The position numbers and the translations under genes are program-made. 64,000 nucleotides of DNA from positions 78,854 through 142,853 of the forward strand of contig JBGUEP010000001.1 of the NCBI GenBank assembly GCA_041821245.1, written 5' to 3'. This DNA comes from Prolixibacteraceae bacterium (GTDB taxonomy: Bacteria; Bacteroidota; Bacteroidia; Bacteroidales; Prolixibacteraceae). This document shows, one piece after another, positions 13,574 through 63,039 of this stretch. The notes under the pieces are model-generated. The model was given only the letters and a program-made list of their open reading frames with translations. It was not told the DNA's origin and searched no databases. Every line of letters begins with the position of its first letter. Position 1 is the first letter of the stretch.

Positions 13574-13649
13574 ATGTAATAGAAAACTTTTTTAAACGGG
13601 AAAAGTAAGGGTAAAACACTGAATAGGCATCTATATTGTAAAGTTGTAA

Positions 13650-42460: not shown

Positions 42461-44926
42461 TTAATGAACTATTATTTTTCCTGATACAATTGACTGGTTT
42501 TCAAATTCGACCTTATAAAACAATAGTTTACTCGTTGTTTTTAGTTCCGAACGGTTAACTTGTATGCGGCTGTTTCCTGAAATGTAATAATCAGTGTGCC
42601 CGTAAATTTTTTGCCCTGTTACAGTTGAAATGCTTATGTTGATGTTTTGATCCACTTCAGAATAAAACTGGATGTAAAACTGATCAATTGCAGGATTGGG
42701 GTATACTTTAACCAAATTATCCATCGTAAAGCTTTCAGTTGAAGTACTATTCAATACCGTCACCTTCACTTTATTTGAATCGGTCAATTTCCCATCGTTA
42801 ACGGTTAGTTTAAAGGTGAACGTGCTATCAGTATCAACTTCCGGAGCCATGAACTGTATCTCAGCATTGAATGGATCATTAATGGGTACGCCTTCCGGAC
42901 CTTCCCATTTATACGTTAATTCATCTCCATCTGGATCGTCACCAGTCCCCGTTAATGTTACGAGGGTATTCTCTTTTACTGAAAAATCGCTGCCTGCATG
43001 AGCCGTTGGTGCATTATTATACTCAAAGGCGGGAACAATTTGTTCAAATTGCTCATCCAGCCATTCCATACGTTGCAATACCCAATTTCGCAAGAACTCA
43101 ACATGTTCTTCATAGGTGCCATTACTAAAAACATTGGGCCACACATAGGAGTTTAAAATATTCCACTGATTAAAATTACGATTAGCCGGAACCATCAAAT
43201 CGTTGTAACATGAATCGATAAATGTATTTATTGAATGGTTACTTAATGCTGCCTGACGCAGATCTTCCCAGCGGTATTTTAAGGTGGTTTGCCAGTAAGG
43301 ATCTTCTTTAAATTTATCCCACCAAAATGGAATTTCATTTCCCTGATCGCCTGCGCCAATTCCATCAGCAGCCCAGCCTACAGTATTGCCTCCCTGATAG
43401 AAATTGGCATTTCCAAAGCAAAGGTTGTAATCCCAAAATGGAGTCATAGTTAATTTGCCGCCATTACTGTCTTTATCTTTATGAAAGAAAACACTAACTC
43501 TGTATCCGTCAATATCGCGACTGATTTCAGTGATAAAGAAGTAATCAATGAATGATTCAACATCGATATAGTTTCGATATCCCAATTCCGGATCTATAAA
43601 ATTATTACCATGTAAAGCATCTTCAAAACTGAAAATGTAGTTTTTGATATATTCTCTTTGTTGAACGTTTAATTCATCATACTTCGGATCAATATAAGAG
43701 AATGTCATCTGATAAGTTCCGGTTCTTCCAGGGTAAGGTGAATTAAAACTACCTTCTTGTTGCCGATCGATACTCATAATATAACCACCTGTAAGTTCAT
43801 CACCTTCTATATCTTCTTCTTTTAAGGTCGCAATATCAACTCGGTTTTGATCAATTTTGATTTTCTCAACAAACAGATAAACTCCTCGGTATTCGCTGTT
43901 GATAACCACCTCGACAAATTGCGTTCGTGGATGCCACCCACTCATATTGTTTCCAAAATAATAGGCCAGCGCGTTGCGCATCAGTGATTTGTCAGCATAT
44001 GGACCATGTAGTACCCAGTCGTTCTCTGCAGGCATTCCAAAAAGTGAAACATTGTTATTCGACTCATCTTCATTTCTGGTTTCAACTGTATAGCTTTTCT
44101 TAGGATACGTCTGGGCTGTATTCCCCCTAATTTCTATCCCAATAAACCCGTCATAGGCTAATGAGTCGTTTTTGTCAACATTAAAATAATTTATCTTGTT
44201 TTCATTGTCAACAACTTTCATTTTAGCCATTATCTTGGGCTCGTCAGGAATGGATTTACCTTCAGTATCAATTACAATAATTGGCAAAGAAGAATATTCA
44301 ATTTCCACGGGTTCCTGAAACCAATTGGGTATTTCATTGAATTCAATTGTTGTTCCTTCAATTTGAGCATTTAAGAACACTCTTCCCGATAGATCAGAAG
44401 AATTGCTTGAAATGTTAATTATCTGAACAGCAAGGATGTTGTTGCCCTCAACTAAAAGTGTTGGATCAATTCCAATACGTTCCGGGTTTCCACCACTGTA
44501 CATTATTGCTTCGTGATCGGCAGATACAGAAGGAGTTAATCCTACCTCTCCGGCAGCTAAATTCAATGAGCGTGCAACTTCATCTCCATTTAAGTACGCC
44601 ACAAATGCATCGTCGTAGTCAATATCCAGCAACAAACTCATTATGTTTACCCCACTTCGGATATTAAATGTTTTGCGCATGTATACCGAAGATGTTCCTA
44701 CAGGTACAGTGGTATTGTCGTCTTCGTCGGCATACCCAAAGCCACCAGGTCCCTGGAGCCAATTGTTATCATCAAAGGATATTGAGACCCAATCAGAAGA
44801 AGGTGCTTCGGTTGGTACAAAGTAGGTCCAGGTATTATCTTCAAGAATAATACTTTCCCAATGTGATTGTGCCCATAATTGGTTTGAAAATAGAAATAGA
44901 AGCAGGATGATATTATACTTTTTCAT
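42461..44926 (-). CDS. CotH-family secreted protein with a PKD-like domain and T9SS C-terminal sorting domain; sole gene inside the nadA-3'-repeat-bracketed insert
   Basis: Signal peptide MKKYNIILLLFLFSNQLWAQ. CotH-like core (SYTVETRNEDESNNNVSLFGMPAENDWVLHGPYADKSLMRNALAYYF...EYRGVYLFVEKIKID). PKD-like segment (APTAHAGSDFSVKENTLVTLTGTGDDPDGDELTYKWEGPEG). C-terminal VYPNPAIDQFYIQF...KIIVH. Confidence 0.7.
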   Translation of the reverse strand: MKKYNIILLLFLFSNQLWAQSHWESIILEDNTWTYFVPTEAPSSDWVSISFDDNNWLQGPGGFGYADEDDNTTVPVGTSSVYMRKTFNIRSGVNIMSLLLDIDYDDAFVAYLNGDEVARSLNLAAGEVGLTPSVSADHEAIMYSGGNPERIGIDPTLLVEGNNILAVQIINISSNSSDLSGRVFLNAQIEGTTIEFNEIPNWFQEPVEIEYSSLPIIVIDTEGKSIPDEPKIMAKMKVVDNENKINYFNVDKNDSLAYDGFIGIEIRGNTAQTYPKKSYTVETRNEDESNNNVSLFGMPAENDWVLHGPYADKSLMRNALAYYFGNNMSGWHPRTQFVEVVINSEYRGVYLFVEKIKIDQNRVDIATLKEEDIEGDELTGGYIMSIDRQQEGSFNSPYPGRTGTYQMTFSYIDPKYDELNVQQREYIKNYIFSFEDALHGNNFIDPELGYRNYIDVESFIDYFFITEISRDIDGYRVSVFFHKDKDSNGGKLTMTPFWDYNLCFGNANFYQGGNTVGWAADGIGAGDQGNEIPFWWDKFKEDPYWQTTLKYRWEDLRQAALSNHSINTFIDSCYNDLMVPANRNFNQWNILNSYVWPNVFSNGTYEEHVEFLRNWVLQRMEWLDEQFEQIVPAFEYNNAPTAHAGSDFSVKENTLVTLTGTGDDPDGDELTYKWEGPEGVPINDPFNAEIQFMAPEVDTDSTFTFKLTVNDGKLTDSNKVKVTVLNSTSTESFTMDNLVKVYPNPAIDQFYIQFYSEVDQNINISISTVTGQKIYGHTDYYISGNSRIQVNRSELKTTSKLLFYKVEFENQSIVSGKIIVH

Positions 44927-45323: not shown

Positions 45324-46046
45324 CTAAAAAGTATCCGTTAAATCAGCAATTTTAAAAAGTTTTTGCGTATCTAAAACTATAATTTTTCGCCCTTTTTTTT
45401 CAATTAAATTTTCCTTTTCAAATGTGCTTAAGATGCGAACAAGGGTTTCAACCGCAATCCCAACAATGTTTGCAAAGTCTTCGCGGGTAAGCACAATTTG
45501 AATCTCATTGTCGTCATTTCTGTTTTGTCTGAAGTTTTCGTTGAGGATGAGTAGCGTAAGTGCCACCCTTTCTCTTACACTTTTTGTGGTAAAGGTAGCG
45601 ATGAAGTTAACCATTACTCCAAATTCATGACTTAGCTTTTTAGTCAGCAGGTTGGATAGTTCTTCGTGTTTATCCAACAATCGATCTAGTTTATCTTTTG
45701 AAACAAAACCGATCAATGAATCGGTAATTGCGGCGGCCGAATCCTGATATTTTTCTTCTCCCAGAAATGCTGCGTATCCAATCATCTCACCTTCGTTACA
45801 CAAATAAATTATTTGTTCCTTTCCTCCATTGAGACTTTTAAATTTTTTTACCTTTCCCTTCTTCACAAAATAAATGCCTAGTGGGTATGCCCCTTCTGTG
45901 AAAATATTTTGCCCCCGCTTAAATTGCTTGGCGATCATCTGGTTTTTGAAATCTAGCTGAACATTTTCAGGTAAGCTTTCAAAATCAAATTCCCGTTTCA
46001 GGTTAAATCGTTCCTTTATTTTATTTAAAAGACTATCCATATTCAA
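45324..46046 (-). CDS. Crp/Fnr-family transcriptional regulator (cNMP-binding domain plus C-terminal HTH)
   Basis: cNMP-binding beta-roll (IFTEGAYPLGIYFVKKGKVKKFKSLNGGKEQIIYLCNEGEMIGY) and HTH (LTREDFANIVGIAVETLVRILSTFEKENLIEKKGRKIIV). No N-terminal Cys cluster, so it is not an FNR-type O2 sensor. Confidence 0.8.
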   Translation of the reverse strand: MNMDSLLNKIKERFNLKREFDFESLPENVQLDFKNQMIAKQFKRGQNIFTEGAYPLGIYFVKKGKVKKFKSLNGGKEQIIYLCNEGEMIGYAAFLGEEKYQDSAAAITDSLIGFVSKDKLDRLLDKHEELSNLLTKKLSHEFGVMVNFIATFTTKSVRERVALTLLILNENFRQNRNDDNEIQIVLTREDFANIVGIAVETLVRILSTFEKENLIEKKGRKIIVLDTQKLFKIADLTDTF

Positions 46047-46072: not shown

Positions 46073-46086
46073 TTGATTTCAATCAA
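46073..46086. promoter_or_regulatory. Perfect FNR/CRP-family-type palindrome TTGAT-N4-ATCAA in the divergent intergenic region
   Basis: ttgatttcaatcaa at 46073..46086. It lies about 27 bp upstream of the Crp/Fnr-family gene start (46046, minus strand) and about 430 bp upstream of the Ehr-like operon. Confidence 0.4.
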
Positions 46087-46516
46087 CTTTATTCCTGATT
46101 TAGATCAAGATTACGATTTCCAAATGAATTACTTTTGTCAATAATTAAGATTATATTTTTTGAATTATTTTATGTCATTTCCGTGTTGTCATTGTTAACT
46201 GTTTTGTTTCTGGTGTTGGGGATTATAGGAATTTTATTTGTTTAGGTAAAGAACAGAGCATTGGTTTCCATTACTGTTGTAACAACAAATGTAATAATTC
46301 CACATAATACATAGATATTTAGGTTGGTAAGTGTTGTTCCGACCATTCGGATACTTCACTATTTGAAATTCTTTTGATAAGAAAATTGCCATCTGAAATT
46401 ACACAAATCTAAGTGCCAGGTCACAATTCGATGATGCCATCAAGGATAAGCAGATTCATTGTTTGGTATGTACTGACACTGAATTAGGTTTAATTATTTA
46501 TGAACTAAAAAAGAGA

Positions 46517-48532
46517 ATGGAAAAACATATTGTTGAAATATTAAATTTGTTGGCCATCTTGTCTTTGGCAATTTTCCCATTTTTGAAGGCACGAAAATTA
46601 GCTTTTACGGCACTTGTTTCAATTATCGTTCAAGTTCTTTTATCGTTCGTTCTGGTTTATCAGGTTTTTACCAATGGAAGCGTCGAATACAGCTATAGCG
46701 GGTCGTTAATCACAGGAAGTATTTCGGTGAAAATTGATTATTTGTCGGCATGGTTCATTCTGGTTATCGTGTTTACCTATTTCACAGGTGCCTGGTATGG
46801 AATACACTACATGAAAAAATACCGTGAACAAACAAGCAACCTAATTTTACATGCCATTGCTTACATATTCGTTTTTATAGGCTTGATTGATATTTGCATT
46901 GTGCAAAACAGCATTGTGTTTCTGGTTGTTTGGGAAATTATGGCTTTTAGTTCATTTATCGTGATCGTTTTTGAACACTATAACAAAGAAACCTTAAAGG
47001 CGGGATTAAATTTTTTGATTCAGTCGCACATCTCCATTCTGTTTTTAACCATCGCATTTATTTGGGCCAAAGTAAAAACAGGTTCTTTTGATTTTTCAGC
47101 CATTTCGGTTTATACCGCACTTCATCCACGCATGGGTTTAGGTTTGTTCGCCTTGTTTTTTATCGGATTTGCAATAAAAGCAGGATTCGTACCTTTTCAT
47201 ACCTGGCTACCCCATGCACACCCTGTTGCTCCTGCCCATATTTCAGGTGTAATGTCGGGAGTGATTATTAAAATCGGAATTTTTGGAATTTTACGAATGC
47301 TCACAATAATCAACGCCAATTATACCATCATTGGAGTTTGCATCCTGATCATTTCAATAGTTACTGGTTTATACGGGGTAATGATGGCCATTGTGCAAAA
47401 TAACCTGAAACGTTTGCTAGCCTATAGTAGTATCGAAAACATTGGGATTATTGGTTTGGGAATTGGGTTGGGTTGTCTCGGAAAAGCATCGAATCATCAA
47501 TGGCTGGTGATTGCCGGATTTGGAGGGGCATTGCTGCACACACTCAACCATTCACTTTTTAAATCGTTACTTTTTTATATTGCCGGAAATGTTTATCAGG
47601 CTACCCACACCTTGAATATTGATTCGTTGGGCGGGTTGCTGAAGAAAATACCACGCACTGCATACCTGTTTCTTATCGGATCGTTGGCTATTTGCGGCTT
47701 TCCGCCTTTCAATGGATTTGTGTCGGAGTTCTATATTTACAATGGATTTTTCAAAGGCCTTCAATCGAACCAGTCGATGTTTAACCTTGCCATGCTTTTT
47801 TCCATTTTTGCCTTGGTGCTTATTGGTGGATTGGCATTAATCACCTTTACCAAAGCTTTTGGTATTGTTTTTTTAGGCAAAAGCCGCGAACCTTTGCATG
47901 TTGATGAAACATTCGATAATCAGGCTGTGGTTTTCCCATTCTATCTCATTGCCTTGGCCATGTTGCTTGTGGGTTTATTTCCGATTCTGTTTTCGTCATC
48001 GCTATTAAAAACAAGTTCTCTTTTTTTCAATACAAGTGATTCATATTCTTTTGTATATCTTGACAAAATGGTAGGTGATATTTCTTCGATTGGATTTTAT
48101 TCAATCGGTTTTATATTGCTGGCGGCTACTTTTTTCGTTTTACGAAAGATGATCACCAGCAAACGACCTTCGCAAACTTATGAAACCTGGGGTTGTGGTT
48201 ATGTTGCCCCAATCCAAAAGGCACAATATTCAGGGAGATCATACACTCGAACTTATAGCCGTCTGTTTGCTCCTATAGTATATGAAGGGAAAGATTTTAA
48301 ACGAATTAAAAAGACAAGTCTTTATCCGAATCATCGTAAATTCTCGACTTACTACGCCGACTTTTGGGAACAATACCTTGTACTTCCGCCTACACGATGG
48401 GTCTCTTTTATTTTGGATAAGTTTCAATTTATTCAAAATGGAAATGTTCAGTCGTATGTGATTTATGGTTTAGCTTTTATTCTTGTGATTGTGATCGTTT
48501 CGATGTTAAGTTCAATTAATCTGGGAGTTTAA
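46517..48532 (+). CDS. Complex-I NuoL / hydrogenase-4 HyfB-like antiporter-type membrane subunit (copy 1)
   Basis: ORF 46463..48532. Start placed at ATG 46517 (MEKHIVEILNLLAIL...) by alignment with the start of paralogue copy 2. WLPHAHPVAPAHISGVMSGVIIKIGIFGILR matches the NuoL/ND5 consensus region ([31 protein letters not shown]). Confidence 0.8.
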   Translation: MEKHIVEILNLLAILSLAIFPFLKARKLAFTALVSIIVQVLLSFVLVYQVFTNGSVEYSYSGSLITGSISVKIDYLSAWFILVIVFTYFTGAWYGIHYMKKYREQTSNLILHAIAYIFVFIGLIDICIVQNSIVFLVVWEIMAFSSFIVIVFEHYNKETLKAGLNFLIQSHISILFLTIAFIWAKVKTGSFDFSAISVYTALHPRMGLGLFALFFIGFAIKAGFVPFHTWLPHAHPVAPAHISGVMSGVIIKIGIFGILRMLTIINANYTIIGVCILIISIVTGLYGVMMAIVQNNLKRLLAYSSIENIGIIGLGIGLGCLGKASNHQWLVIAGFGGALLHTLNHSLFKSLLFYIAGNVYQATHTLNIDSLGGLLKKIPRTAYLFLIGSLAICGFPPFNGFVSEFYIYNGFFKGLQSNQSMFNLAMLFSIFALVLIGGLALITFTKAFGIVFLGKSREPLHVDETFDNQAVVFPFYLIALAMLLVGLFPILFSSSLLKTSSLFFNTSDSYSFVYLDKMVGDISSIGFYSIGFILLAATFFVLRKMITSKRPSQTYETWGCGYVAPIQKAQYSGRSYTRTYSRLFAPIVYEGKDFKRIKKTSLYPNHRKFSTYYADFWEQYLVLPPTRWVSFILDKFQFIQNGNVQSYVIYGLAFILVIVIVSMLSSINLGV

Positions 48533-48535
48533 GTT

Positions 48536-50566
48536 ATGGGAAAAAACCTGATTGAAATAATTAACCTGCTCGCAATCATCACCATTGTGATTTTACCTTT
48601 TTTAAGTACAAAAAAAATGGGCATTGTCACGCTCACGGTAATTTCAGTTCAAGTTGTTTTGGCTTTTGTGGTTGCGTTTTTGGCTTTTTCAGACGGGTTT
48701 ATTTCATTCACATACAAGGGTTCGCTGGCTACCGGCGAAATTCCTATCCGCATTGACTATTTATCGGCATGGTTTATCGGTATTATCAGTTTCACTTTTT
48801 TTACCGGGGCATGGTATGGTTTTCAGTATATGAAAATGTATCGTGATCAACACTCCAATTTAGTTTTACATGCAACTGCATTTATTCTGGCATACACCGC
48901 GCTAATCGACATTTGCATCGTTCAAAATGCTATCGTCTTTTTAGTGATGTGGGAAATAATGACCATTAGTTCGTTTATAACCATCATTTTTGAACACTAT
49001 AAAAAAGAGACCTTAAAGGCTGGGATCAATTTTTTCATTCAATCGCATGTGGCCATTCTTTTTCTCACCATCGCCTTTATTTGGGTGAAAGTAAAAACCG
49101 GATCATTCGACTTTGCAGAAATATCAAAGCTCACAGCCATGCATCCTGCAATGGGAATCGGATTGTTTGTCTTTTTCTTTATTGGATTTGCCATCAAAGC
49201 CGGATTTGTTCCTTTTCATACCTGGCTCCCATTGGCCCACCCGGTAGCACCTGCCCATATCTCAGGAATCATGTCGGGCGTTATCATAAAAATTGGCATT
49301 TTTGGCATTCTGCGTATGATTGTTTTGATCAAAACCGATTACATGACCATTGGTTACTTCATTTTAATTGTTTCGGTAATTACCGGAGTGTACGGGGTTT
49401 CGCTGGCCATTATTCAACACAATCTGAAACGTTTACTAGCCTACCACAGCATCGAAAATATAGGGATCATTGGCATTGGCATTGGTCTGGGATGTCTGGG
49501 CATTGGGATGGAAAATCAGTTATTGCTTATGGCTGGATTTGGCGGGGCGCTGCTACACACCTTGAACCACTCACTTTTTAAATCGCTGTTGTTTTATAGT
49601 GCCGGAAATGTTTATCAGGCAACTCACACCTTAAATATTGAATCGTTGGGAGGACTAATCAAAAAGATTCCACAATCGACCTATCTGTTTTTGATTGGAG
49701 CTTTGGCCATTTGTGGTTTGCCTCCTTTTAATGGTTTTGTTTCCGAATTTCTGATTTACAATGGCTTGTTCAAAGGATTGTTGTCGAATCATTTTATGTT
49801 TATACTGGTGATGCTTTTTTCCATTTTAGCCATGGTTTTAATCGGAGGCCTTGCCCTTATTTGTTTTACCAAGGCTTTTGGAATAGTGTTTTTAGGCAAA
49901 GCCCGAAAAGAATTGCCATCGGATAAAATCATTGAAAAACCCTTACAAGTTGGCTCCTTATACTTAATTGCTTATGCGATAACCGTGATTGGGGTATTGC
50001 CGATTTTATTCACTTCGCCCCTAAGTAAAGCAGCACATCTTTTTCAAAAAAATCCAGACCTGTTTCTTGCTGATGGTCTCACCCAAAACCTAACTATTTT
50101 GACTCTTATCGGTTTGTATTCTTTGGGCTTTGTGGCACTTACAGTACTGGCTTTGTATATCCGACGATTGATTATAAAACGCCGATCGGTTTTAACTGAC
50201 GCTACCTGGGGTTGTGCCTATGTGGGTGATGGAAAAAATATGCAGTACACCGCTTCATCTTTCATCCGTACTTTCAGGAAACTGGCTGAGCCGCTGTTTT
50301 TAATTAAAAAAACAAAAACAGTGGCAACCGGCCTTTACCCAACAACCATAAAACAAAGCACACACCCCTACGACAGATTGGAGTCGGCTTTGATTGACAA
50401 ACCAATTTATTTTTTCAGAAAGGTGTTGAACCGCTTTGTTTTTTTGCAGAATGGTAACATTCAAGCCTACATTCTTTACGGATTTATTTTTATTTCAACG
50501 GCCATAATTTTGCCAATACTAATTTCTAAGTTCATGGTATTTATTCACTTCTTAAATCAATTGTAA
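48536..50566 (+). CDS. Complex-I NuoL / HyfB-like antiporter-type membrane subunit (copy 2, tandem paralogue)
   Basis: Roughly 70 percent identical to copy 1 along its full length (e.g. YLSAWFIGIISFTFFTGAWYGFQYMKMYRDQHSNLVLHA vs YLSAWFILVIVFTYFTGAWYGIHYMKKYREQTSNLILHA). Starts 3 bp after copy 1 ends. Confidence 0.8.
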   Translation: MGKNLIEIINLLAIITIVILPFLSTKKMGIVTLTVISVQVVLAFVVAFLAFSDGFISFTYKGSLATGEIPIRIDYLSAWFIGIISFTFFTGAWYGFQYMKMYRDQHSNLVLHATAFILAYTALIDICIVQNAIVFLVMWEIMTISSFITIIFEHYKKETLKAGINFFIQSHVAILFLTIAFIWVKVKTGSFDFAEISKLTAMHPAMGIGLFVFFFIGFAIKAGFVPFHTWLPLAHPVAPAHISGIMSGVIIKIGIFGILRMIVLIKTDYMTIGYFILIVSVITGVYGVSLAIIQHNLKRLLAYHSIENIGIIGIGIGLGCLGIGMENQLLLMAGFGGALLHTLNHSLFKSLLFYSAGNVYQATHTLNIESLGGLIKKIPQSTYLFLIGALAICGLPPFNGFVSEFLIYNGLFKGLLSNHFMFILVMLFSILAMVLIGGLALICFTKAFGIVFLGKARKELPSDKIIEKPLQVGSLYLIAYAITVIGVLPILFTSPLSKAAHLFQKNPDLFLADGLTQNLTILTLIGLYSLGFVALTVLALYIRRLIIKRRSVLTDATWGCAYVGDGKNMQYTASSFIRTFRKLAEPLFLIKKTKTVATGLYPTTIKQSTHPYDRLESALIDKPIYFFRKVLNRFVFLQNGNIQAYILYGFIFISTAIILPILISKFMVFIHFLNQL

Positions 50567-50567
50567 T

Positions 50568-51473
50568 ATGCTTAGCTTTTTACTCATCATATTGTCGAGC
50601 TTTGTTTTTATGGGCATTGTTGTTCGCACCAAAAGCTTGTCATCGGGACGAAAAGGACCAGGTATATTTCAACCTATGAAAGATATTTTCAGACTTTGGA
50701 AAAAAGGATCGGTAATCAGCACCACAACAAGCCTGATCTTTCAAATTGCCCCAACCATTTATTTTGCTTCTATTGTAATGGCCATTTTAATGATCCCTCA
50801 TGGAAAATTACCGGGAATTATTTCATTCGACGGCGATTTTGTAATGTTTGCCTATGTACTTGCCATTGGGAAATTTATGATGATTGTTTCGGCACTCGAT
50901 ACGGGAAGCAGCTTTGAAGGGATGGGAGCGAGCCGCGAGGCACTTTTCTCCATGTTGGTTGAACCTGCGTTTTTTATCATCATGGGATCGTTTGCGCTTT
51001 TCACCGGCCATACTTCATTTTACGAGATATTCAGTACGCTCAATTACGGACCTTACATTTCGTACCTGATTGGCGGCCTGGCCACTTTTGTGATCATACT
51101 AATTGCCATGGTCGAAAATAGCCGAATGCCCGTTGACGATCCGAAGACCCACCTGGAGCTTACCATGGTTCACGAAGTAATGATTTTGGACAATAGCGGT
51201 TTCGATTTGGGTTTGATCATGTATGCCACTCCCCTAAAATTTGCCATGTATGGCGCACTGATCTCAAACTTTTTTATTGGCGAAATCCCAATTCTGATAT
51301 CGATTCCAATGTTTTTCGGGATTCAATTTGTAATTGCTGTTTTCGTTGGCTTACTTGAATCGTTTATGGCACGGTTCAGGATGAACCACAACCCTCAGTT
51401 TATATTTATTCTAACTTCGGTATCGCTGCTTATCTTTTTCGGAGTGTTACTGGTATTGGGTAAATTCATTTAA
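50568..51473 (+). CDS. NuoH / HycD / HyfC-like membrane subunit
   Basis: IVVRTKSLSSGRKGPGIFQPMKDIFRLWKKGSV matches the NuoH N-terminal ERK...R.GPN..G..G.LQP.AD..K consensus. Eight predicted TM helices. Confidence 0.8.
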   Translation: MLSFLLIILSSFVFMGIVVRTKSLSSGRKGPGIFQPMKDIFRLWKKGSVISTTTSLIFQIAPTIYFASIVMAILMIPHGKLPGIISFDGDFVMFAYVLAIGKFMMIVSALDTGSSFEGMGASREALFSMLVEPAFFIIMGSFALFTGHTSFYEIFSTLNYGPYISYLIGGLATFVIILIAMVENSRMPVDDPKTHLELTMVHEVMILDNSGFDLGLIMYATPLKFAMYGALISNFFIGEIPILISIPMFFGIQFVIAVFVGLLESFMARFRMNHNPQFIFILTSVSLLIFFGVLLVLGKFI

Positions 51474-51484
51474 ATTATACGACT

Positions 51485-52114
51485 ATGACTGATATCTTGC
51501 TGATAACATTTACCATAACGCTACTCTTTATGAGTATTGCCAACCGGATTTATACCTACCTGAATATTCTGATTTTTCAGGGGATAATCCTTTTTGGCGC
51601 CACCTATCTTTCATTGACCGAAATTAACACGGCCAATCTGATATTCATCATGATTGAAACCATTGTGGTAAAAGCCATTGCTGTGCCCATGTTTATGAAA
51701 TACATCATTAAACGAAATAAAATCACCAGAGAAACAGAACCCTTTCTGCCCAACTTCATTTCGTTGATTATTGTAACCGCGATCATCATCATTACAATTA
51801 TTTTATCAAGTGCTGTTAGCGATGTAAATCTCGATAAGACTTATTTTGTTGTCGCTTTATCGAACCTTTTTACGGGTTTGTATTTAATTGTTTCACGTAA
51901 AAAAATCATTGTCCATGTTATCGGATATCTGGTTATTGAAAATGGAGTTTTTGTATTGGCACTTGCCGTTGGTAACGAAATGCCGATGCTGGTAAACATG
52001 GGAATTATGCTCGATATTTTTGCCAGTGTGTTAATTCTTGGGATCTTCTTCAATAAAATTGGCGATTATTTGAATAACCCTGATGTAACTCTTCTAAGCA
52101 ATCTAAAAGATTAA
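51485..52114 (+). CDS. HyfE-like (NuoK-related) small membrane subunit
   Basis: 209 aa, all hydrophobic helices. The C-terminal GYLVIENGVFVLALAVGNEMPMLVNMGIMLDIFASVLILGIF resembles the NuoK/HyfE conserved E-N-G region. Confidence 0.5.
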   Translation: MTDILLITFTITLLFMSIANRIYTYLNILIFQGIILFGATYLSLTEINTANLIFIMIETIVVKAIAVPMFMKYIIKRNKITRETEPFLPNFISLIIVTAIIIITIILSSAVSDVNLDKTYFVVALSNLFTGLYLIVSRKKIIVHVIGYLVIENGVFVLALAVGNEMPMLVNMGIMLDIFASVLILGIFFNKIGDYLNNPDVTLLSNLKD

Positions 52115-52118
52115 TAAT

Positions 52119-53543
52119 ATGATTGGTATTTTTTTAATAGGAACAATTGTCATTTCGGCCTGGCTGTTTTTTAACAAAAACAGAATTGTCAACTACTCTT
52201 TACTTGTGGGCTATACGATTCTACTTTGGGCATTGGGATTTTACGAGTACAATCATATTAACCTCATCGAACTTAGATTCTTTAAACCTGATGCTTTAGG
52301 AATTTTACTTCTTTTTGCCATGTGTATTGTTAGCATTCCCGCCTTTTACCATGGTTACAGGTATATTGTTACGCACGATGAAACGCCTCACACCCGAGGA
52401 TTGTTCTTTGCCGCGATGGTATTGTTGATGTCGGCCTGCAGTATGGCATACCTGTCAAACCACATTGCAGTTACCTGGATTTTTGTTGAAATTACAACAC
52501 TTAGTGCATCGGCACTAATCTACCATCACCGCAACATTAGGGCACTCGAAGGAGTTTGGAAATATGTTTTTATTTGTGCGCTCAGTATCACTTTTATCTA
52601 CATTGGCATTCTGTTTTTGAGTTTATCGATGAAACAAGCGGGTATCGAAGGCATGTCGTTCGATTCAATTCTTCAAAATGTGGAAAAGCTTGATTTGTTT
52701 TGGTTGAAACTCGCCTTCCTTTTCATTTTCACCGGATTTACAGCAAAAATTGGTTTGGTACCCATGTATACTGCGGGTGTCGATGCCAAGGATAAAGCCC
52801 CGGCTCCGGCAGGTGCATTGCTCTCAAGTGTTTTAATGAACATGGGATTTGTGGGTATTTACAGGGTGTATGCAATTCTTACCCACACTGAGTTACAACA
52901 TTGGGCATCAGTTATTATGATTATATCTGGCCTGTTATCAGTATTCGTAGCAACGGTTTACATGACCCATATCAAAAACATCAAACGCATGTTCGCCTAT
53001 TCGAGCATCGAACACATGGGATTAGTGATGTTGGGCCTAGCCGTTGGTGGAATTGGTGTTTATGCCGCCATTTTACATCTCATTCTTCATACTTTTGTAA
53101 AATCCAGTTTATTTTTTCAATACAATCAAATTTTTCTGGTTTATAAAAGCAAAAGCATCTACGATTCAGGTCATTACTTTAAATACAACAAGATTGGTGC
53201 TATTGTAATCTTGTTGGCCTTTATTTCGGCCACGGCTATGCCTCCATCAGGTTTGTTCGTCTCCGAATTTTTAATTTTTCAGGCCCTGTTCGAAGCTCAT
53301 TACATTGTTATTCTAATTGCACTTTTAATCCTATTGACCATGATTATCTGGGGATTTGGAACAAATATTTTCAAATTACTTTTTACGCCTCCATTGAAAC
53401 TAGATGAAACCACTATTCCTAAGATAAATCCTTGGAATTCGTTCTCTCAATTTGCATTGTTGGCATTGTCGGTTTATTTAGCCTATAGCCCGCCACCAGT
53501 ATTTGTGCAACTGATTCAGGATGCTGTAACCCTTGTTCAATAA
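52119..53543 (+). CDS. NuoN/NuoM / HyfF-like antiporter-type membrane subunit
   Basis: 474 aa with about 14 TM helices and a proton-pumping-subunit core (FTAKIGLVPMYTAGVDAKDKAPAPAGALLSSVLMNMGFVGIYR). Confidence 0.7.
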   Translation: MIGIFLIGTIVISAWLFFNKNRIVNYSLLVGYTILLWALGFYEYNHINLIELRFFKPDALGILLLFAMCIVSIPAFYHGYRYIVTHDETPHTRGLFFAAMVLLMSACSMAYLSNHIAVTWIFVEITTLSASALIYHHRNIRALEGVWKYVFICALSITFIYIGILFLSLSMKQAGIEGMSFDSILQNVEKLDLFWLKLAFLFIFTGFTAKIGLVPMYTAGVDAKDKAPAPAGALLSSVLMNMGFVGIYRVYAILTHTELQHWASVIMIISGLLSVFVATVYMTHIKNIKRMFAYSSIEHMGLVMLGLAVGGIGVYAAILHLILHTFVKSSLFFQYNQIFLVYKSKSIYDSGHYFKYNKIGAIVILLAFISATAMPPSGLFVSEFLIFQALFEAHYIVILIALLILLTMIIWGFGTNIFKLLFTPPLKLDETTIPKINPWNSFSQFALLALSVYLAYSPPPVFVQLIQDAVTLVQ

Positions 53544-53549
53544 AACGAT

Positions 53550-55052
53550 ATGAATACCATAAAACTACATAACAATCAGACGGTTAATTTGAAGGACATT
53601 CCCGAACTGAACTATCAAGAGTTCATGAATACGAACCTTGAATTACTGGCTAATAATCCCGAAAGGCATTGTGTTAACTATTTTGGTGTTGACGATGAAA
53701 ACTGCCTGACACTCTACTGTTGTATTGCCGACGATGCAACGCACGAAATTTATGTTTCATGTTCTGTTTTGAAAGGAAAAACTGAATACCCATCGTTTTC
53801 GGCTCAGAATCATAATTTTGAAAAGTTTGAAAGGGAAATCCACGAAAACTTTGGAATTGCATATACCGATCATCCCTGGTTAAAACCTTTCAGGTACAGC
53901 CACAATCGATTCGATTCAGGAAAAACCATTCGCAACTATCCGTTTTATGGGGTTGAAAGTGATGAATTGCATGAAGTAGGTGTTGGTCCGATTCATGCAG
54001 GGATTATCGAACCCGGGCATTTCCGTTTTATTTGTAACGGAGAACAAATCATGCACCTCGAAATTCAACTGGGCTATCAGCACCGGGGCATTGAACAACT
54101 GTTTCTGCAAAAAACAAAAATATTAGAGCGCGCTACACTTGCCGAAAATATAACAGGTGATACCACGGTTGGACATTCTACCGCGTTCGCAAATCTTTGG
54201 GAAAGCTTGAGTGATTACACAGCCGATCCTTCCTTGCAATTTTCGCGTACCCTTGCTCTCGAATTGGAACGTATTGCCATACATACCGGAGATATGGCAG
54301 GTGTATGTGCCGACATTGCTTACCAATTGGGCAACTCGGTTTATGGGCGCTTGCGAACCCCAATCGTTAACTTTTTCCAGGAATGGGGAGGCAATCGTTT
54401 GGCCAAAGGCTTAATCAGGCCCGGCAAAATAAACTACCCCTTTTCACCCGAATTAGGAAATCGGCTCATTGAAATTTTTAAAGCTTACGAGCCCGACTTT
54501 AACGAAATGACCCATAAGTTCTTTTCCCTTCCCAGCGCTTTGTCGCGTATGGAAAGGACAGGAATTGTAACTTACGACGAGGCACTTGAAATCGGTGCTG
54601 TGGGCATGGCTGCCCGTGCAAGTGGATTAAACAGAGATATTAGATCATCCCATCCGCACAATTTATACAATCAGACAATTACTCATGAACCCGAAATTAA
54701 ACATCATGGTGATGTGTATTCCAGGGTGCGGATTAGAAGGGAAGAAATTGTACAGTCTGTTTCCTATTGTAAAAAGCTGATAGAATCTATCCCTGAATTT
54801 GATTCGCCCAAAAATATTCCATTTAAACCTGGCAGTGACAAATTCACTATTGCATTGGTTGAAGGCTGGCGAGGCGAAATTTGTCATTGTGCCATTACCG
54901 ATGCTGAAGGAAAGTTGAAAATCTATAAAATTAAAGATCCATCGCATCACAATTGGATGGCTTTAGCTCAATCGGTAAGGAACAACGAAATTTCTGATTT
55001 CCCAATCTGTAACAAGAGTTTTAACCTATCATACAGTGGTCACGATTTATAA
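53550..55052 (+). CDS. NuoC-NuoD fusion / HycE-like large subunit homologue lacking all four Ni-Fe-binding cysteines
   Basis: N-terminal NuoC-like part (FEREIHENFGIAYTDHPWLKP), then the NuoD/[NiFe]-large-subunit core (GVGPIHAGIIEPGHFRF...GYQHRGIEQ). The N-terminal RxCGxCxxxH site reads ITGDTTVGHSTAF (both Cys replaced by Thr). The C-terminal DPCxxCxxH site reads DPSHHNWMA (Cys replaced by Ser and Asn). Confidence 0.8.
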   Translation: MNTIKLHNNQTVNLKDIPELNYQEFMNTNLELLANNPERHCVNYFGVDDENCLTLYCCIADDATHEIYVSCSVLKGKTEYPSFSAQNHNFEKFEREIHENFGIAYTDHPWLKPFRYSHNRFDSGKTIRNYPFYGVESDELHEVGVGPIHAGIIEPGHFRFICNGEQIMHLEIQLGYQHRGIEQLFLQKTKILERATLAENITGDTTVGHSTAFANLWESLSDYTADPSLQFSRTLALELERIAIHTGDMAGVCADIAYQLGNSVYGRLRTPIVNFFQEWGGNRLAKGLIRPGKINYPFSPELGNRLIEIFKAYEPDFNEMTHKFFSLPSALSRMERTGIVTYDEALEIGAVGMAARASGLNRDIRSSHPHNLYNQTITHEPEIKHHGDVYSRVRIRREEIVQSVSYCKKLIESIPEFDSPKNIPFKPGSDKFTIALVEGWRGEICHCAITDAEGKLKIYKIKDPSHHNWMALAQSVRNNEISDFPICNKSFNLSYSGHDL

Positions 55053-55067
55053 AAAAGGAAGATTGAA

Positions 55068-55829
55068 ATGTTAGATAATCTAAAAATATTATGGCATCAG
55101 GGGAAACAGTTTATTCCAGATGTTACCACCGCAAAAGTACCAGGCATCTTTAGAGGACGACCAATCATAACTAAAAATCAAGTGAATGAAGAGCTGCTGG
55201 TTGACTTATGTCCAACAAAAGCCATTTCAAGAAACCCATTGTGCATCGATTTGGGCAAGTGCACTTTTTGCGGCGAATGTGCGGTGCAATTTCCAGATAA
55301 GATTTCATTTACCAAGGATTATAAATTATCAACAAATATAAGGGAACGCTTAATAATTCATGAAGTTGAAGATGCGCCAATTATGGTTGATCCAACGCTT
55401 GTTCGAAAAGAAATTCATCGTTTGTTTGGACGTTCGCTTAAGTTGAGGCAGGTTTCAGCAGGTGGCGATAACAGTACTGAATGGGAATTGAACGCATCGA
55501 ATAATGTTCAGTTCGACATAAGCCGCTTTGGGATCGATTTTGTAGCCTCGCCTCGCCATGCCGATGGAGTTGTAATTACAGGCCCCATTACCTCAAACAT
55601 GGCCGAGTCCCTCGAACGATGCTACCATGCCATTCCCGAGCCTAAAATCATCATCCTTGCCGGTACTGATGCCATCAGCGGAGGTATTTTTGCCGACAGC
55701 CCGGCAATCGACCGGAGCTTTTTAACGAAATACCCAATCGACTTATATATTGCAGGTAACCCTGTTCATCCTTTAACATTTATCAATGGTGTATTAAATT
55801 TAACACGAACCAAATCTACCAGAAGATGA
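55068..55829 (+). CDS. Fusion of a ferredoxin-like (NuoI/HycF-related) domain with a NuoB / hydrogenase-small-subunit-like domain that lacks all four N2-cluster cysteines
   Basis: N-terminal DLCPTKAI...CIDLGKCTFCGECAVQFP has one possible 4Fe-4S site. The C-terminal part aligns to NuoB (SPRHADGVVITGPIT...EPKIIILAGTDAISGGIF...LYIAGNPVHP vs SPRQADLMVVAGT...EPKWVISMGACANSGG...VYIPGCPPRPE). The cluster cysteines are replaced: CC to N/S, C to T, C to N. Confidence 0.7.
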   Translation: MLDNLKILWHQGKQFIPDVTTAKVPGIFRGRPIITKNQVNEELLVDLCPTKAISRNPLCIDLGKCTFCGECAVQFPDKISFTKDYKLSTNIRERLIIHEVEDAPIMVDPTLVRKEIHRLFGRSLKLRQVSAGGDNSTEWELNASNNVQFDISRFGIDFVASPRHADGVVITGPITSNMAESLERCYHAIPEPKIIILAGTDAISGGIFADSPAIDRSFLTKYPIDLYIAGNPVHPLTFINGVLNLTRTKSTRR

Positions 55830-56245
55830 AGAATTTACGATTTGCTTTTGCCATAGGAGATGATAATCTAATTGCTGAAACGAAATTTAGTGATGCTTCT
55901 ATGATCCGAATTTACGAGTATCTTTTTACTGAAAAATGTTTGAATTTTATTTCAGAAGAGATAAATCCTGTTTTTGAAATAAAAGATCATGATGAAAAAG
56001 TCAGCATTTTGATTGATTTCCTCAGCAGCAATAATATTGATTTGCTTGTCGCAAAAAAATATGGAATAATGATAGAAGTTGAAAATAAATATTTTGTTCC
56101 AATAGTTGTTTCAAATTCATCACCCCAAAGAGTGGTCGAATTAATCACAAAACAAATCAACTGGCTTTATGATGAACTTGAATTAGAAAAAAAAGAACAC
56201 ATGATTATTCGAATTGACAAAGGTGTTTTTAAGTATAAATTATAA
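55826..56245 (+). CDS. Small hypothetical protein, possibly a NifX/NifB-like (Nitro_FeMo-Co family) cofactor-binding fold; translationally coupled to the preceding gene
   Basis: The ATGA start/stop overlap with 55068..55829 indicates coupling. MKNLRFAFAIGDDNLIAETKFSDASMIRIYEY resembles the MKIAIP..DG..S.HFG.A..F.IYE start of NifX-like proteins. The similarity is weak. Confidence 0.3.
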   Translation: MKNLRFAFAIGDDNLIAETKFSDASMIRIYEYLFTEKCLNFISEEINPVFEIKDHDEKVSILIDFLSSNNIDLLVAKKYGIMIEVENKYFVPIVVSNSSPQRVVELITKQINWLYDELELEKKEHMIIRIDKGVFKYKL

Positions 56246-56248
56246 GAA

Positions 56249-57238
56249 ATGAATAAAATAAATGCTGCAATTACAGGAATCGAATCCTACTTGCCCGAGT
56301 ATATTTTAACCAACGAAGAATTAAGCCAAATGGTTGATACCTCTGATGAGTGGATCATGCAACGAGTTGGAATTAAGGAAAGACGGATTCTTAAGGGCGA
56401 TGGTTTGGCCACCTCGGATATGGGTGCCGCGGCGACTAAAAAATTATTGGCTAAAACGGGTACAAAACCAGAAGAAATTGATTTTGTAATAGTGGCAACA
56501 GCAACGCCCGACATGTCTTTCCCTTCTACTGCTTGTCTCATAGCTGAAAAATCAGGTATAAAAAACTCCTGGGGCTTTGATTTGAGTGCAGCTTGTTCCA
56601 GTTTTTTGTTTGCACTTGAAACTGCCAGTCATTTTATTGAATCAGGAAAATATAAAAAAATTCTGTTGGTTGCTGCCGATAAAATGTCATCGATTACAGA
56701 TTATACAAATAGAAATACTTGCGTTTTGTTTGGCGATGCAGCTGTAGCTATGCTAATTGAACCTACAACGGAAGAAGTTGGCGTAATGGATTCCCTCTTG
56801 CAAATTGATGGTATTGGGAAAGACTTCCTTTATATGAAAGCGGGAGGATCATTGAAACCTGCTTCCCATGAAACGGTTGATGCAAAAGAGCATTTTATGT
56901 ATCAGGATGGAAAAGCCGTATTTAAAGTGGCTGTATCTAAAATGTCTGATGTTTCGGTAGAAATAATGAGGCGAAATGAATTAAAGCCTGAAGACCTGGC
57001 CTGGTTTATTCCTCATCAGGCAAATTTAAGGATCATTGACGCTGTTGGTCGTCGTATGGGCATGACTGCAGATAAAGTGATGATAAACATTGAAAAATAT
57101 GGAAATACAACCAATGCTACAATTCCATTATGCCTTTGGGAACTTGAGCATAAATTAAAGAAAGGTGATAATCTAATTTTATCTGCTTTTGGAGGAGGAT
57201 ATACGTGGGGATCGATCTATTTGAAATGGGCTTATTAA
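56249..57238 (+). CDS. fabH: 3-oxoacyl-ACP synthase III (KAS III)
   Basis: Cys-His-Asn triad context: [27 protein letters not shown]. Starts 4 bp after the previous gene. Confidence 0.9.
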
Positions 57239-57267
57239 TTAAGAAAAGATCTTTAAAAACAAACGAT

Positions 57268-58521
57268 ATGAAACTAAAAAGAGTTGTTATTACAGGATTA
57301 GGAGCTTTAACTCCCATTGGAAATAATGTTAATGATTTCTGGAAGAATCTTATTCAGGGTAAAAGTGGTATTGCCGAGATTACAAAATTTGATGCCTCTC
57401 CTTTTAAAACAAAATTTGCCGGAGAATTAAAAGGCTTCGATCCTTTGCTATTTATGGAAAAAGCACAAGCCCGCAAGATGGACTCCTATTCACAATATGC
57501 CGTTGCGGTTGTTGATGAATGCATCAAAGATTCAAATATTGATTTAAAAAATACCGATCTCAGCAAAGTTGGTGTAATATGGGGTACTGGTATTGGTGGC
57601 ATCGAAACTTTCGAAAAGGAGATTATTGAATATGGAGCAAATTTAGATTCCCCTCGTTTCAGTCCTTTTTTTGCTACTAAAATGATTTCGAATATGGCTG
57701 CCGGTAATATTTCAATTCATTATGGTTTTCGTGGAGTCAGTTATGTTACTGCATCAGCCTGTGCTTCAAGCAACAATGCAATTATCAATGCATATAATAA
57801 TATACAACTAGGTAAAGCTAATGTTATTTTTGCCGGAGGTTCTGAAGCAAGCATTACCCCTGCTGGAATTGGAGGGTTTAGTTCGATGAAAGCAATTTCG
57901 CAACGCAACGAATCCCCCGAAACAGCTTCTCGTCCCTTTGATGTTTCACGCGATGGTTTTGTATTGGCTGAAGGTGCCGGTGTAATTATGCTTGAGGAAC
58001 TGGAGCACGCTAAAAACAGGGGAGCAAAAATATATGGCGAAATTGCAGGTGGCGGCTGTGCTTCTGATGCCTACCATATTGCTGCACCTCATCCCGAAGG
58101 CATTGGTGCCGTGGCGGCAATGACCGAAGCCATTAACGAAGCCGGTTTGTTGCCCGAAGATGTCGACTATGTAAGTACGCACGGCACGGCTACTCCTATT
58201 GGCGACTTAAGCGAATGTAAAGCTATCGTAACCGTTTTCGAAAACTCGCTCGATAAATTACACATTAGTGCAACAAAATCAATGACCGGACACTTATTGG
58301 GTGCTGCCGGGGCAATTGAAGCAATTGCTTGTATAAAATCCATAAACACTGGAATCGTACCTCCAACCAGCAATCTCAATGAAATTGATCCTGCCATTGA
58401 TAAACGAATTAACTTAACGCCAAATGTAGCAGTAACGAAAACGGTGAATGTGGCTTTAAACAACACATTTGGTTTTGGTGGACATATTTTTGTTTCGCTT
58501 TTTAAGAAATACAAAGAATAG
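57268..58521 (+). CDS. fabF: 3-oxoacyl-ACP synthase II (KAS II)
   Basis: ORF 57205..58521. The likely start is ATG 57268 (MKLKRVVITGLGALTPIGN). Cys-His-His triad: SACASS, VSTHGTATPIGD, SMTGHLLGAAG. Confidence 0.9.
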   Translation: MKLKRVVITGLGALTPIGNNVNDFWKNLIQGKSGIAEITKFDASPFKTKFAGELKGFDPLLFMEKAQARKMDSYSQYAVAVVDECIKDSNIDLKNTDLSKVGVIWGTGIGGIETFEKEIIEYGANLDSPRFSPFFATKMISNMAAGNISIHYGFRGVSYVTASACASSNNAIINAYNNIQLGKANVIFAGGSEASITPAGIGGFSSMKAISQRNESPETASRPFDVSRDGFVLAEGAGVIMLEELEHAKNRGAKIYGEIAGGGCASDAYHIAAPHPEGIGAVAAMTEAINEAGLLPEDVDYVSTHGTATPIGDLSECKAIVTVFENSLDKLHISATKSMTGHLLGAAGAIEAIACIKSINTGIVPPTSNLNEIDPAIDKRINLTPNVAVTKTVNVALNNTFGFGGHIFVSLFKKYKE

Positions 58522-61617: not shown

Positions 61618-62625
61618 TTAACTTTTAAAAATGAGAATTATGTAACTAACGTACAAAAGTACAAAAATGCTGCCTTGTATCCTCGAAATTTTTCCTTGGG
61701 TTACAGCCCGGTATCGGCTGGCAAACGAAGTCCCATTATTCCTGAATAAAAACCCAAGGGGCATCATCGATAAGAGTAAAAGCAGATAGAAGATCATCAT
61801 AAAAGTGAGGTCTATGCTGAATTCACTAAATTTTAAGGGAATTGATCGATAGCCGGCAGTAATACCAATTACAGCAAAAACATTAAAAATATTTGATCCG
61901 ATGATGTTCCCTACAGAGATATCGGATTCCTTTCGAAAGGCAGCAATAATGGAGGTGGTCAATTCCGGGATACTGGTTCCAAAGGCTACAACAGTAATGG
62001 AAATAATTCGTTCGCTGATCCCCATGTTCAATGCCAAACCAGAGGCGCCATTCACCAGAAATTTGGAGCCAAAAGCCAAGCCGGCCGATGCAATAATTAC
62101 CATCAGGACATAAAAGCCAATTTTATGTTCGTTTTTAGGTTTAGGAATTTTGATGTGTATCGGAAATTTATTGGCGCTTCTTATAGAGCTGATAATGAAA
62201 AGAATGAGTAAGGCAAATAAAGCAACTCCTTCAATTTGATCAATCAAATTGTTTGACATGAAAGCGAAAAGTAAGCCTCCCGAAAGGAACATGATTGGCC
62301 AGCTGCGTTTAATGGTTTGTTGGTTTACCGGCATGGGTAAAATTATAACGGTAAGGCCAAGAACCAGGGCAATGTTGGCAATGTTCGATCCAATTACATT
62401 CCCCAGAGCAATTTCGGGGTGACCGGTAAGCGCTGCATCGAAACTCACCATAAGTTCAGGTGCCGAGGTTCCAAATGCTACAACGGTAAGCCCAATCACA
62501 AGGGATGAAATTTTGAAATGATTGGCTATGGACACACTTCCCCGGACCAGAAATTCGCCACCTACAACAAGAAATAGTATGCCTAACAGAAGTTGGCCAA
62601 TGTTGATTATGAAAGCCTGATCCAT
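61618..62625 (-). CDS. Na+/Ca2+ exchanger (CaCA) family membrane protein (YrbG-like)
   Basis: Two alpha-repeat regions ([17 protein letters not shown]...[13 protein letters not shown] and [17 protein letters not shown]...[12 protein letters not shown]). Confidence 0.8.
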
Positions 62626-62888: not shown

Positions 62889-63039
62889 AAATGTGTGTTT
62901 TTTGCCAGGTGCAAATTTAGATGAAAACATTCGATTTATATAATTTGAAGGATTGATTGTTTCAGGGAAAAAAAATAGACTATTTCTTCCCGTCATTTTT
63001 GTAAATTTGAGCACAGTAAAACTAAACCAAATAAATACT

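Follow-up and report, generated by a model that had tools for sequence, protein, structure and literature searches.

The DNA analysed here (the window) is a stretch of 64,000 nt from a Prolixibacteraceae bacterium, contig JBGUEP010000001.1, and all coordinates below follow its numbering. It carries a block of seven plus-strand genes, g1 to g7, whose products resemble the subunits of complex I and of the group-4 membrane [NiFe]-hydrogenases. An earlier note, made from the letters alone, had described such a contiguous seven-gene block, and the open reading frames (ORFs) were found exactly where it placed them, at 46463-55829 (46517-55829 from the likely start), with intergenic gaps of 1-15 nt. 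Families were assigned by Pfam and NCBIfam profile searches, in which NF005086 is hydrogenase-4 subunit B and NF008556 is the hydrogenase-4 membrane subunit. The subunit set that had been proposed, with two NuoL-like, one NuoH-like, one HyfE-like and one HyfF/NuoN-like membrane subunit, a NuoC-NuoD protein and a ferredoxin-NuoB fusion, was borne out as follows (E-values in brackets):

g1, 46517-48532, plus strand: HyfB/NuoL/MbhH-like antiporter-type subunit, copy 1, 671 aa (PF00361, 2e-52; NF005086, 8e-139)
g2, 48536-50566, plus strand: HyfB/NuoL-like antiporter-type subunit, copy 2, 676 aa, a paralog of g1 (PF00361, 1e-51; NF005086, 8e-135)
g3, 50568-51473, plus strand: NuoH/HycD/HyfC-like subunit, 301 aa (PF00146, 3e-31; HycD, 2e-20)
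g4, 51485-52114, plus strand: HyfE-like small membrane subunit, 209 aa (NF008556, 3e-17)
g5, 52119-53543, plus strand: HyfF/NuoN-like antiporter-type subunit, 474 aa (PF00361, 7e-39; NF005044, 1e-58)
g6, 53550-55052, plus strand: NuoC-NuoD fusion, the hydrogenase-type large subunit, 500 aa (PF00329 and PF00346, the latter 2e-31)
g7, 55068-55829, plus strand: small subunit with a NuoI-like N-terminus and a NuoB-like domain, 253 aa (PF01058, 3e-19; TIGR01971, 6e-5)

The ORF of g1 opens at a TTG (46463); the true start is likely the ATG at 46517, because the alignment with the paralog g2 begins there. All NCBIfam scores of g1-g7 are far under the equivalog cut-offs, so none of the seven is an ordinary Hyf or Nuo protein. 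In addition, g4 has a weak NuoK-like similarity (PF00420, E=0.006).

Among solved structures, g6 is closer to the hydrogenase type than to NuoD, with HycE (9e-30) and MbhL (2e-28) as its best matches versus 4e-21 for Nqo4. The cysteines that are the hallmark of group-4 hydrogenases (L1 RxCGxCxxxH, L2 DPCxxC) are absent from it. In a HMMER alignment to E. coli HycE (7Z0S), which defined the ligand columns, the remnants of the two motifs are:

54147-54176, plus strand: L1 remnant NITGDTTVGH of g6
55017-55049, plus strand: L2 remnant SFNLSYSGHDL of g6

At L1, where HycE has RVCGICGFAH, the cysteines are replaced by Thr202 and Thr205, as had been noticed at the outset. The L2 pair, first given as Ser/Asn, needs correction: opposite DPCYSC of HycE, g6 has NLSYSG, in which the Cys positions are Ser494 and Gly497 and the Asn (Asn492) replaces the preceding Asp. 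The same states extend through the best 80 related loci, which were compared in detail. Their large subunits have Ala or Thr, Thr, Ser and Gly at the four Ni-Fe cysteine positions; G203, D204, S494, G497, D499, E154 and H157 are invariant, and H209 is His in 79 of 80. Opposite Tyr87 of Thermus Nqo4, which binds quinone in complex I, g6 has Gly203.

The small subunit has lost ligands as well. It matches MbhJ at 2e-21 and HycG at 4e-18, and its N2 (proximal) ligand columns were taken from the alignment to Pyrococcus MbhJ (6CFW). The claim that the NuoB-like domain lacks all four N2 cysteines agrees with this alignment, where their places are taken by Asp134, Thr137, Asp201 and Asn231. Among 76 orthologs, D134 and N231 are each found in 76/76 and D201 in 75/76. 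The second position is Cys in 71/76 and Thr in the window protein (codon 55476-55478, residue 137), which makes the window atypical within its own clade. A cofactor-free small subunit is not what results, and any such picture has to be corrected, for g7 keeps one complete and invariant [4Fe-4S] ligand set:

55209-55280, plus strand: [4Fe-4S] ligand set Cys48-Pro49, Cys65, Cys68 and Cys71, in the N-terminal NuoI-type ferredoxin remnant of g7
about 55413-55811, plus strand: NuoB-like domain of g7 (PF01058; MbhJ/HycG alignment)

The four cysteines are invariant in 76/76 orthologs, and Cys48-Pro49, Cys65, Cys68 and Cys71 are unvarying in every sequence examined, including very divergent clades. 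By standard ferredoxin wiring, we take them to be the ligands of the medial, N6b-equivalent cluster. One complete [4Fe-4S] ligand set, and only one, is therefore left, while the clusters on either side of it, the proximal and the distal one, are lost. Throughout the N2-less group, N2 positions 1 and 3 always hold an acidic residue.

The membrane arm has kept its machinery. Relay residues were read from alignments of g1, g2 and g5 to MbhH and HycC (for g1, 3e-55 and 4e-51, respectively). Both g1 and g2 keep the Glu of transmembrane helix (TM) 5, the Lys of TM7 and TM8, the His of TM11 and the Lys of TM12; g5 keeps the TM5 Glu, TM7 Lys, TM11 His and TM12 Lys, and its TM8 Lys is replaced. The share of invariant positions differs among the subunits:

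NuoH-like g3: 43% (67 orthologs), the highest of the set
small subunit g7: 39%
HyfE-like g4: 39%, including E58, E85, E152 and E165
large subunit g6: 36%
antiporter-like g1, g2 and g5: 21-22%

Conservation is strongest in the subunits that join the two arms (36-43% versus 21-22% invariant). Within g3, the TM5-6 loop ENSRMPxDDPKTHLELTMxHEVMILDNSG (residues 183-211) is invariant in all 67 orthologs.

When one genome per species was scanned, at least 584 species-level genomes proved to contain relatives, and nearly all of the best 80 come from Bacteroidota. A protein identical to g6 is present in a Prolixibacteraceae metagenome-assembled genome (MAG), and hundreds of Bacteroidota homologs have 70-83% identity; carriers include the cultured Labilibaculum antarcticum and MAGs assigned to Paludibacter, Draconibacterium and Mangrovibacterium. 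The g1-g7 order is dominant, being found in most of the 80 loci, with 1, 2 or 3 HyfB-like genes and varying flanks. In some relatives, the genes for the large and the small subunit are separated by an insertion of 1.7-3.7 kb (L007, about 11480-13187; L010, about 11474-15243), and an ORF of roughly 120 aa that matches no window protein lies inside the operon span of four loci (L008, 7220-7597). The operon appears to tolerate insertions between these two genes.

This distribution bears on the simplest explanation for the missing ligands, which is that the operon is a decaying, functionless remnant of a hydrogenase, or that sequencing or assembly errors have disfigured a true hydrogenase or complex I. 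Several cofactor sites are indeed lost. However, all seven ORFs are intact, the junction subunits are highly invariant across several families, relatives are spread over hundreds of species, and the same substitutions are found in 76-80 independent genomes. Because these states recur in 76-80 orthologs from other genomes, the ligand losses are not sequencing errors, and one of the two grounds on which the earlier note would have given up its proposal is thereby excluded. The other was an intact nuoA/J/K/E/F/G set contiguous with these genes; Pfam and NCBIfam found none in the operon or the window, and Gly occupies the quinone-binding Tyr position of Nqo4. Judged by the conservation data, decay and sequencing error are excluded as explanations, with only the slightest probability left to them, and the complex is under strong purifying selection.

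What family the operon belongs to can be judged from its large subunit. When 1.84 billion representative proteins were searched exhaustively, 504 clusters matched at E<=1e-30, the best 150 of which were inspected for the Cys-less signature [AS]GD[ST]..H plus NLSY[CSA]G.DL. Most of these 150 carry it, down to about 32% identity, and proteins with all four Ni-Fe cysteines (CCCC) first appear at about 36% identity. The named Cys-less members are from Bacteroidota, Spirochaetia, Sulfurospirillum and Binatia, and the nearest Cys-complete proteins are Planctomycetota hydrogenases. Relatives of complex I and Ech in whose large subunit the Ni-Fe cysteines are usually missing are known as Ehr complexes (for energy-converting hydrogenase-related); they were first seen in Geobacter and are present in many organisms, with unknown function (PMC3569383, PMC6349859, PMC10284858). 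HydDB deliberately leaves them out as non-H2-metabolising (PMC5037454), and the literature places them beside group 4f/'Ehf' (PMC10284858, PMC5037454). The window operon combines a large subunit homologous to NuoD and group-4 enzymes, the absence of all four Ni-Fe cysteines, and antiporter-, NuoH- and NuoB-like subunits encoded together. We are highly confident that it is of the Ehr family, and that it is neither a hydrogenase nor a complex I; the second point had also been claimed beforehand, and both the ligand alignments and the gene content agree with it. The same holds for the proposal of an Ehr-type system as the best uncharacterised candidate in the window, in so far as this is a known and uncharacterised family, but with relatives in so many genomes it is far from rare.

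Members of the family differ in the clusters for which they retain ligands:

L081, Sulfurospirillum: Ehr, N2 cysteines 4/4, both ferredoxin CxxCxxCxxxC motifs
L085: Ehr, N2 cysteines 4/4, both ferredoxin motifs
L087: Ehr, N2 cysteines 4/4, both ferredoxin motifs
L083, Spirochaetia: Ehr, N2 cysteines 3/4, both ferredoxin motifs
L082, Binatia: Ehr, N2 cysteines 4/4, without the ferredoxin domain
L084, Planctomycetota: true hydrogenase, N2 cysteines 4/4, both ferredoxin motifs
window, 76 close orthologs, L086, L088, L090 and L091: Ehr, N2 lost, distal cluster lost

The earlier note took the combined loss of the Ni-Fe and N2 cysteines as the definition of Ehr. The Ni-Fe part stands. The N2 part does not, as L081, L082, L085 and L087 keep all four N2 cysteines and L083 keeps three, with both ferredoxin clusters wherever the ferredoxin domain exists, whereas the window's clade has a single cluster. 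Because other Ehr clades and the Hyq complex (below) keep the N2 cysteines, the loss of N2 marks a subclade and not the Ehr family. The window belongs to a broad subclade, from Bacteroidota wherever the source is named, that has lost the Ni-Fe site and the proximal and distal clusters. In neighbour-joining (NJ) trees, the close N2-less clade is monophyletic. A single N2-less origin that includes L086 is supported by the small-subunit NJ tree and is left unresolved by the large-subunit NJ tree. We found no description of this N2-less, single-cluster Bacteroidota subclade in the literature covered, a scope outside which the founding Ehr papers fall. Elsewhere, L089 (3001-4503) has a Cys-less large-subunit homolog of 47% identity just 3 nt downstream of mutS; genes for membrane subunits or a small subunit are missing from the 3 kb to its left and right, so that it has the look of an orphan copy.

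The Planctomycetota locus L084 is a Cys-complete group-4 [NiFe]-hydrogenase, probably of the uncharacterised group 4f/'Ehf' type. It resembles the window operon in its identical gene order, its NuoCD and ferredoxin-NuoB fusions and its NuoH-like TM5-6 loop, and differs in having four Ni-Fe cysteines, four N2 cysteines and both ferredoxin motifs; its large subunit is 30% identical to that of the window. Since the Cys-less signature is shared family-wide and L084 has the identical layout, Ehr can be derived from the group-4 enzyme type, and the window operon is an Ehr descended from a Hyf/group-4 membrane [NiFe]-hydrogenase of the same gene order. The loop core RxP[VF]D[DN]PxTHLELTM[IV]HE is unchanged from L084 via the cluster-bearing Ehr to the N2-less clade, so the coupling element of the hydrogenase relative has been kept unchanged in the NuoH-like subunit. 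A remodelled loop as the companion of N2 loss was considered and is ruled out, the loop being invariant also in L084 and in the cluster-bearing Ehr.

Several characterised systems share parts of this design. The ehr genes of Geobacter sulfurreducens, GSU0739-45, encode a NuoL-like EhrA-1, a HyfE-like EhrC, EhrL and EhrS (PMC7894505); compared by subunit names and types only, they too have a Cys-less group-4-like large subunit encoded with NuoL-like, HyfE-like and small-subunit genes. Hyq (HyqBCEFGI), known from Azorhizobium caulinodans and further diazotrophic alpha-proteobacteria, has a genetic link to the recycling of H2 in N2 fixation (PMC3357923). It has the same six subunit types, and HyqG is a NuoC::D fusion of ~500 residues without both CxxC motifs; HyqI, however, keeps four N2 cysteines where g7 has none (PMC3357923), and the window has one extra HyfB-like gene. 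The first Cys of HyqI is residue 55, so it would have no N-terminal ferredoxin domain. Among solved structures, E. coli Hyf/FHL-1 (7Z0S) and Pyrococcus MBH (6CFW) match the large, small, NuoH-like and antiporter-like subunits best, and the top-scoring NCBIfam models are those of hydrogenase-4 subunits B, E and F. In contrast to Hyf and FHL, the window has neither HyfA/HycB nor a full HyfH/HycF as electron-input proteins; Ni-Fe ligands and a proximal cluster are missing too, as are formate dehydrogenase and hyp genes in the vicinity.

Both complex I and MBS abandoned H2 chemistry and kept the membrane arm, and both keep a proximal N2-type cluster that hands electrons to the substrate. MbsL and MbsJ of Pyrococcus MBS/Mbx (6U8Y) and the Nqo subunits are detectable homologs of the window proteins, which differ in having no N2 cluster. 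Complex I differs further by its Tyr87 in Nqo4 (Gly203 here) and its NuoA/J/K/E/F/G subunits, which are absent here; the operon is flanked instead by a Crp/Fnr regulator and fabH/fabF. Mrp antiporters have MrpA/D-type homology to the antiporter-like subunits. The window operon differs from them in its NuoH-, NuoD- and NuoB-like subunits, and Pfam and NCBIfam found no MrpB/E/F/G families among the seven genes.

With the Ni-Fe site and the proximal and distal clusters lost, the complex can neither produce nor oxidise H2 at a Ni-Fe site nor perform complex I chemistry, and it should have no canonical wire into the large-subunit pocket. Electron tunnelling has a limit of about 14 Å, and with the wire broken on both sides of the remaining cluster, electrons would be unable to reach that pocket. 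The overall reading we lean towards is an ion translocator with a cut electron wire. The complex would move ions (H+ or Na+) across the membrane, and its junction would be operated by charge or protonation changes in an acidic pocket that replaces N2 and the Ni-Fe site, made up of D134, E138 and D201 of the small subunit and E154, D204 and D499 of the large subunit. The single [4Fe-4S] cluster would act as a trigger or gate, taking electrons from a ferredoxin-type donor and giving them up to an acceptor close by. Of the parts of this proposal, retained ion translocation is the one we consider probable; that the cluster has a redox role (as trigger, gate or sensor) and is not purely structural is a tentative suggestion, about which we are somewhat doubtful.

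A number of points weigh against the redox-triggered translocator. Ion transport, cluster occupancy and the redox partner are all inferred from sequence. The surviving cluster could be purely structural, since a ferredoxin domain may be unable to fold without one. In none of the 80 loci is a gene for a donor or acceptor linked to the operon. A pump driven by redox chemistry has to be fed by a net exergonic reaction, and no acceptor site is identifiable in the sequence. The Thr at residue 137, where most orthologs have Cys, implies that the role of this residue is dispensable or altered here. Finally, the founding Ehr papers may already describe some features of the subclade.

The main rival, in our ranking, needs no electrons. 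The complex could be a redox-independent secondary transporter, either an Mrp-like cation/proton antiporter or a conformational machine linked to the proton-motive force, in which the hydrophilic cap only assembles or regulates and the cluster is structural. All catalytic metal sites and two of the three clusters are gone while the antiporter relay residues are intact, acidic residues stand in for cluster ligands, and no redox partner is linked to the operon; each of these fits such a transporter. It is harder to reconcile with the conservation. A merely passive cap would not be expected to surpass the antiporter-like subunits in conservation, as the hydrophilic subunits and the NuoH-like loop do, and all four cysteines of one cluster are invariant across very divergent clades. 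MrpB/E/F/G-type subunits are missing as well. We consider this transporter possible but less likely than the translocator with a cluster trigger.

A further possibility is a cryptic oxidoreductase whose partner is encoded elsewhere, so that electrons still reach a substrate at the junction. It could take the form of a supercomplex of formate dehydrogenase (FDH) and Ehr, as proposed for Margulisbacteria and Geobacter, or of an unconventional H2-linked activity, as claimed for Hyq. In Geobacter, growth on formate raises the Ehr subunits (PMC7894505), a complex of FDH with Ehr has been put forward (PMC6349859), and the H2-linked Hyq is likewise without CxxC motifs (PMC3357923); the invariant cluster and conserved junction of the window operon would also suit such an enzyme. 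But other Ehr and Hyq keep N2 (PMC3357923), while here the proximal and distal clusters are absent and leave no wire to the pocket, and no fdh, nuoEF or hyp gene is present in the window or recurs beside the operon in the 80 loci. As the compared systems keep N2 and no partner is linked, we regard an oxidoreductase as rather improbable here.

Between these readings lies the question of whether a complex-I-type ion pump can work without an electron wire, a claim that we put forward as speculative and, on present evidence, unlikely. In one version, soluble carriers cyclically reduce and re-oxidise the isolated [4Fe-4S] cluster, whose charge, coupled electrostatically to the acidic pocket, may drive the antiporter modules by way of the conserved NuoH-like loop. 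The other version has no redox chemistry, and the places once taken by the clusters and by Ni-Fe may serve as cation- or proton-binding sites.

Upstream of the operon lie a regulatory gene and two palindromes:

45324-46046, minus strand: Crp/Fnr-family regulator, 240 aa, with a cyclic nucleotide-binding domain and a Crp-type helix-turn-helix (PF00027/PF13545/PF00325), divergent from the operon
46073-46086, intergenic: palindrome TTGATttcaATCAA, a perfect TTGAT-N4-ATCAA
46095-46108, intergenic: palindrome CTGATttagATCAA, with one mismatch, 22 bp from the perfect copy

The regulator stands at the same position and orientation in about 11 related loci and is the probable local regulator of the operon. 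Its best NCBIfam match is the Fnr subfamily (9.8e-27, under the cut-off). An FNR-type oxygen sensor is ruled out, because the protein contains only one Cys and so has no FNR Fe-S motif. The two palindromes are candidate Crp/Fnr-type operator sites. The perfect copy is the sole perfect TTGAT-N4-ATCAA within 64 kb, and sites with at most one mismatch are not above chance in the window (12 found versus 8.3 expected), so what speaks for operators is that one match is exact, that the two copies stand in tandem and that they lie in this intergenic region. Scans for sigma-70 promoters and intrinsic terminators gave counts at or below the shuffle expectation, other promoter types not being covered by the models.

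Pfam scans of all other window ORFs of at least 100 aa found no NuoE/F/G, formate dehydrogenase, hyp, rnf or nqr genes, which agrees with the earlier note for NuoE/F/G, formate dehydrogenase and hydrogenase maturation. When the flanking ORFs of the 80 loci were clustered in search of a conserved partner enzyme, only the Crp/Fnr regulator recurred (about 10 loci), and the rest were unrelated housekeeping genes. A 139-aa ORF (55826-56245, plus strand) was rejected as an eighth subunit; it has no family match at E<=10, which also leaves a NifX-like character unsupported, and it recurs in 1/80 loci, together with fabH/fabF. This ORF overlaps the g7 stop by 4 nt, fabH (56249-57238) follows 3 nt on, and fabF (57205-58521) overlaps fabH. 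Because these genes overlap or nearly abut, the transcript of the Ehr operon may extend into fatty-acid synthesis genes here, an arrangement that recurs only in a Draconibacterium MAG (L007).

The other genes of the window encode cargo proteins of the type IX secretion system (T9SS) with CotH or lamin-tail domains (LTD), TonB-dependent receptors, NadA, FabH/FabF and housekeeping proteins. Five large proteins with T9SS C-terminal sorting domains (999-4964, 13650-16574, 33509-36040, 38863-39981 and 42461-44926) are a notable concentration within 64 kb; several carry CotH kinase and/or lamin-tail domains, and one has PLD-like domains. A few kb downstream of the operon, at 61618-63095 on the minus strand, are Na+/Ca2+ exchanger-family and TatA/B-family genes, for which no link was seen in the related loci. 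In two divergent N2-less metagenome loci, a pair of chromate-transporter-family genes (PF02417) directly follows the small subunit on the same strand (L088, 5396-6462; L090, 5335-6413), and in the cluster-bearing Ehr of L087 the gene right after the small subunit encodes a CGGC-domain (PF08821) protein (11260-11592). L086 stands for a deep lineage of Bacteroidota without N2; beyond its operon, the opposite strand (8572-11339, minus) encodes an 821-aa fusion of pyridine-nucleotide disulfide reductase, rhodanese, TusA and DrsE domains, accompanied by an ArsR-type regulator. This may be a link to sulfur metabolism, as a single case.

Ehr complexes are widespread and have repeatedly been described as evolutionary intermediates between membrane hydrogenases and complex I; to our knowledge, no function has been assigned to them since they were named. 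The family itself was already known and common in Bacteroidota, and what the present analysis adds is a conserved subclade without N2 that keeps a single cluster. Homologs are currently annotated as 'NADH-quinone oxidoreductase subunit C', 'hydrogenase large subunit' or 'Ni,Fe-hydrogenase III', labels by which H2 metabolism or an additional complex I is wrongly attributed to Bacteroidota genomes in their hundreds. The subclade amounts to a natural dissection, in which the membrane arm and the junction loop are as in the hydrogenase relative while the Ni-Fe site and two of the three clusters have been removed. It asks what a complex-I-type junction needs in order to drive ion translocation, and because relatives occur in cultured Bacteroidota, this question can be approached experimentally. 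If true, a pump without an electron wire, in either version, would add to the complex I superfamily a way of coupling that is new, present in a large part of the Bacteroidota.

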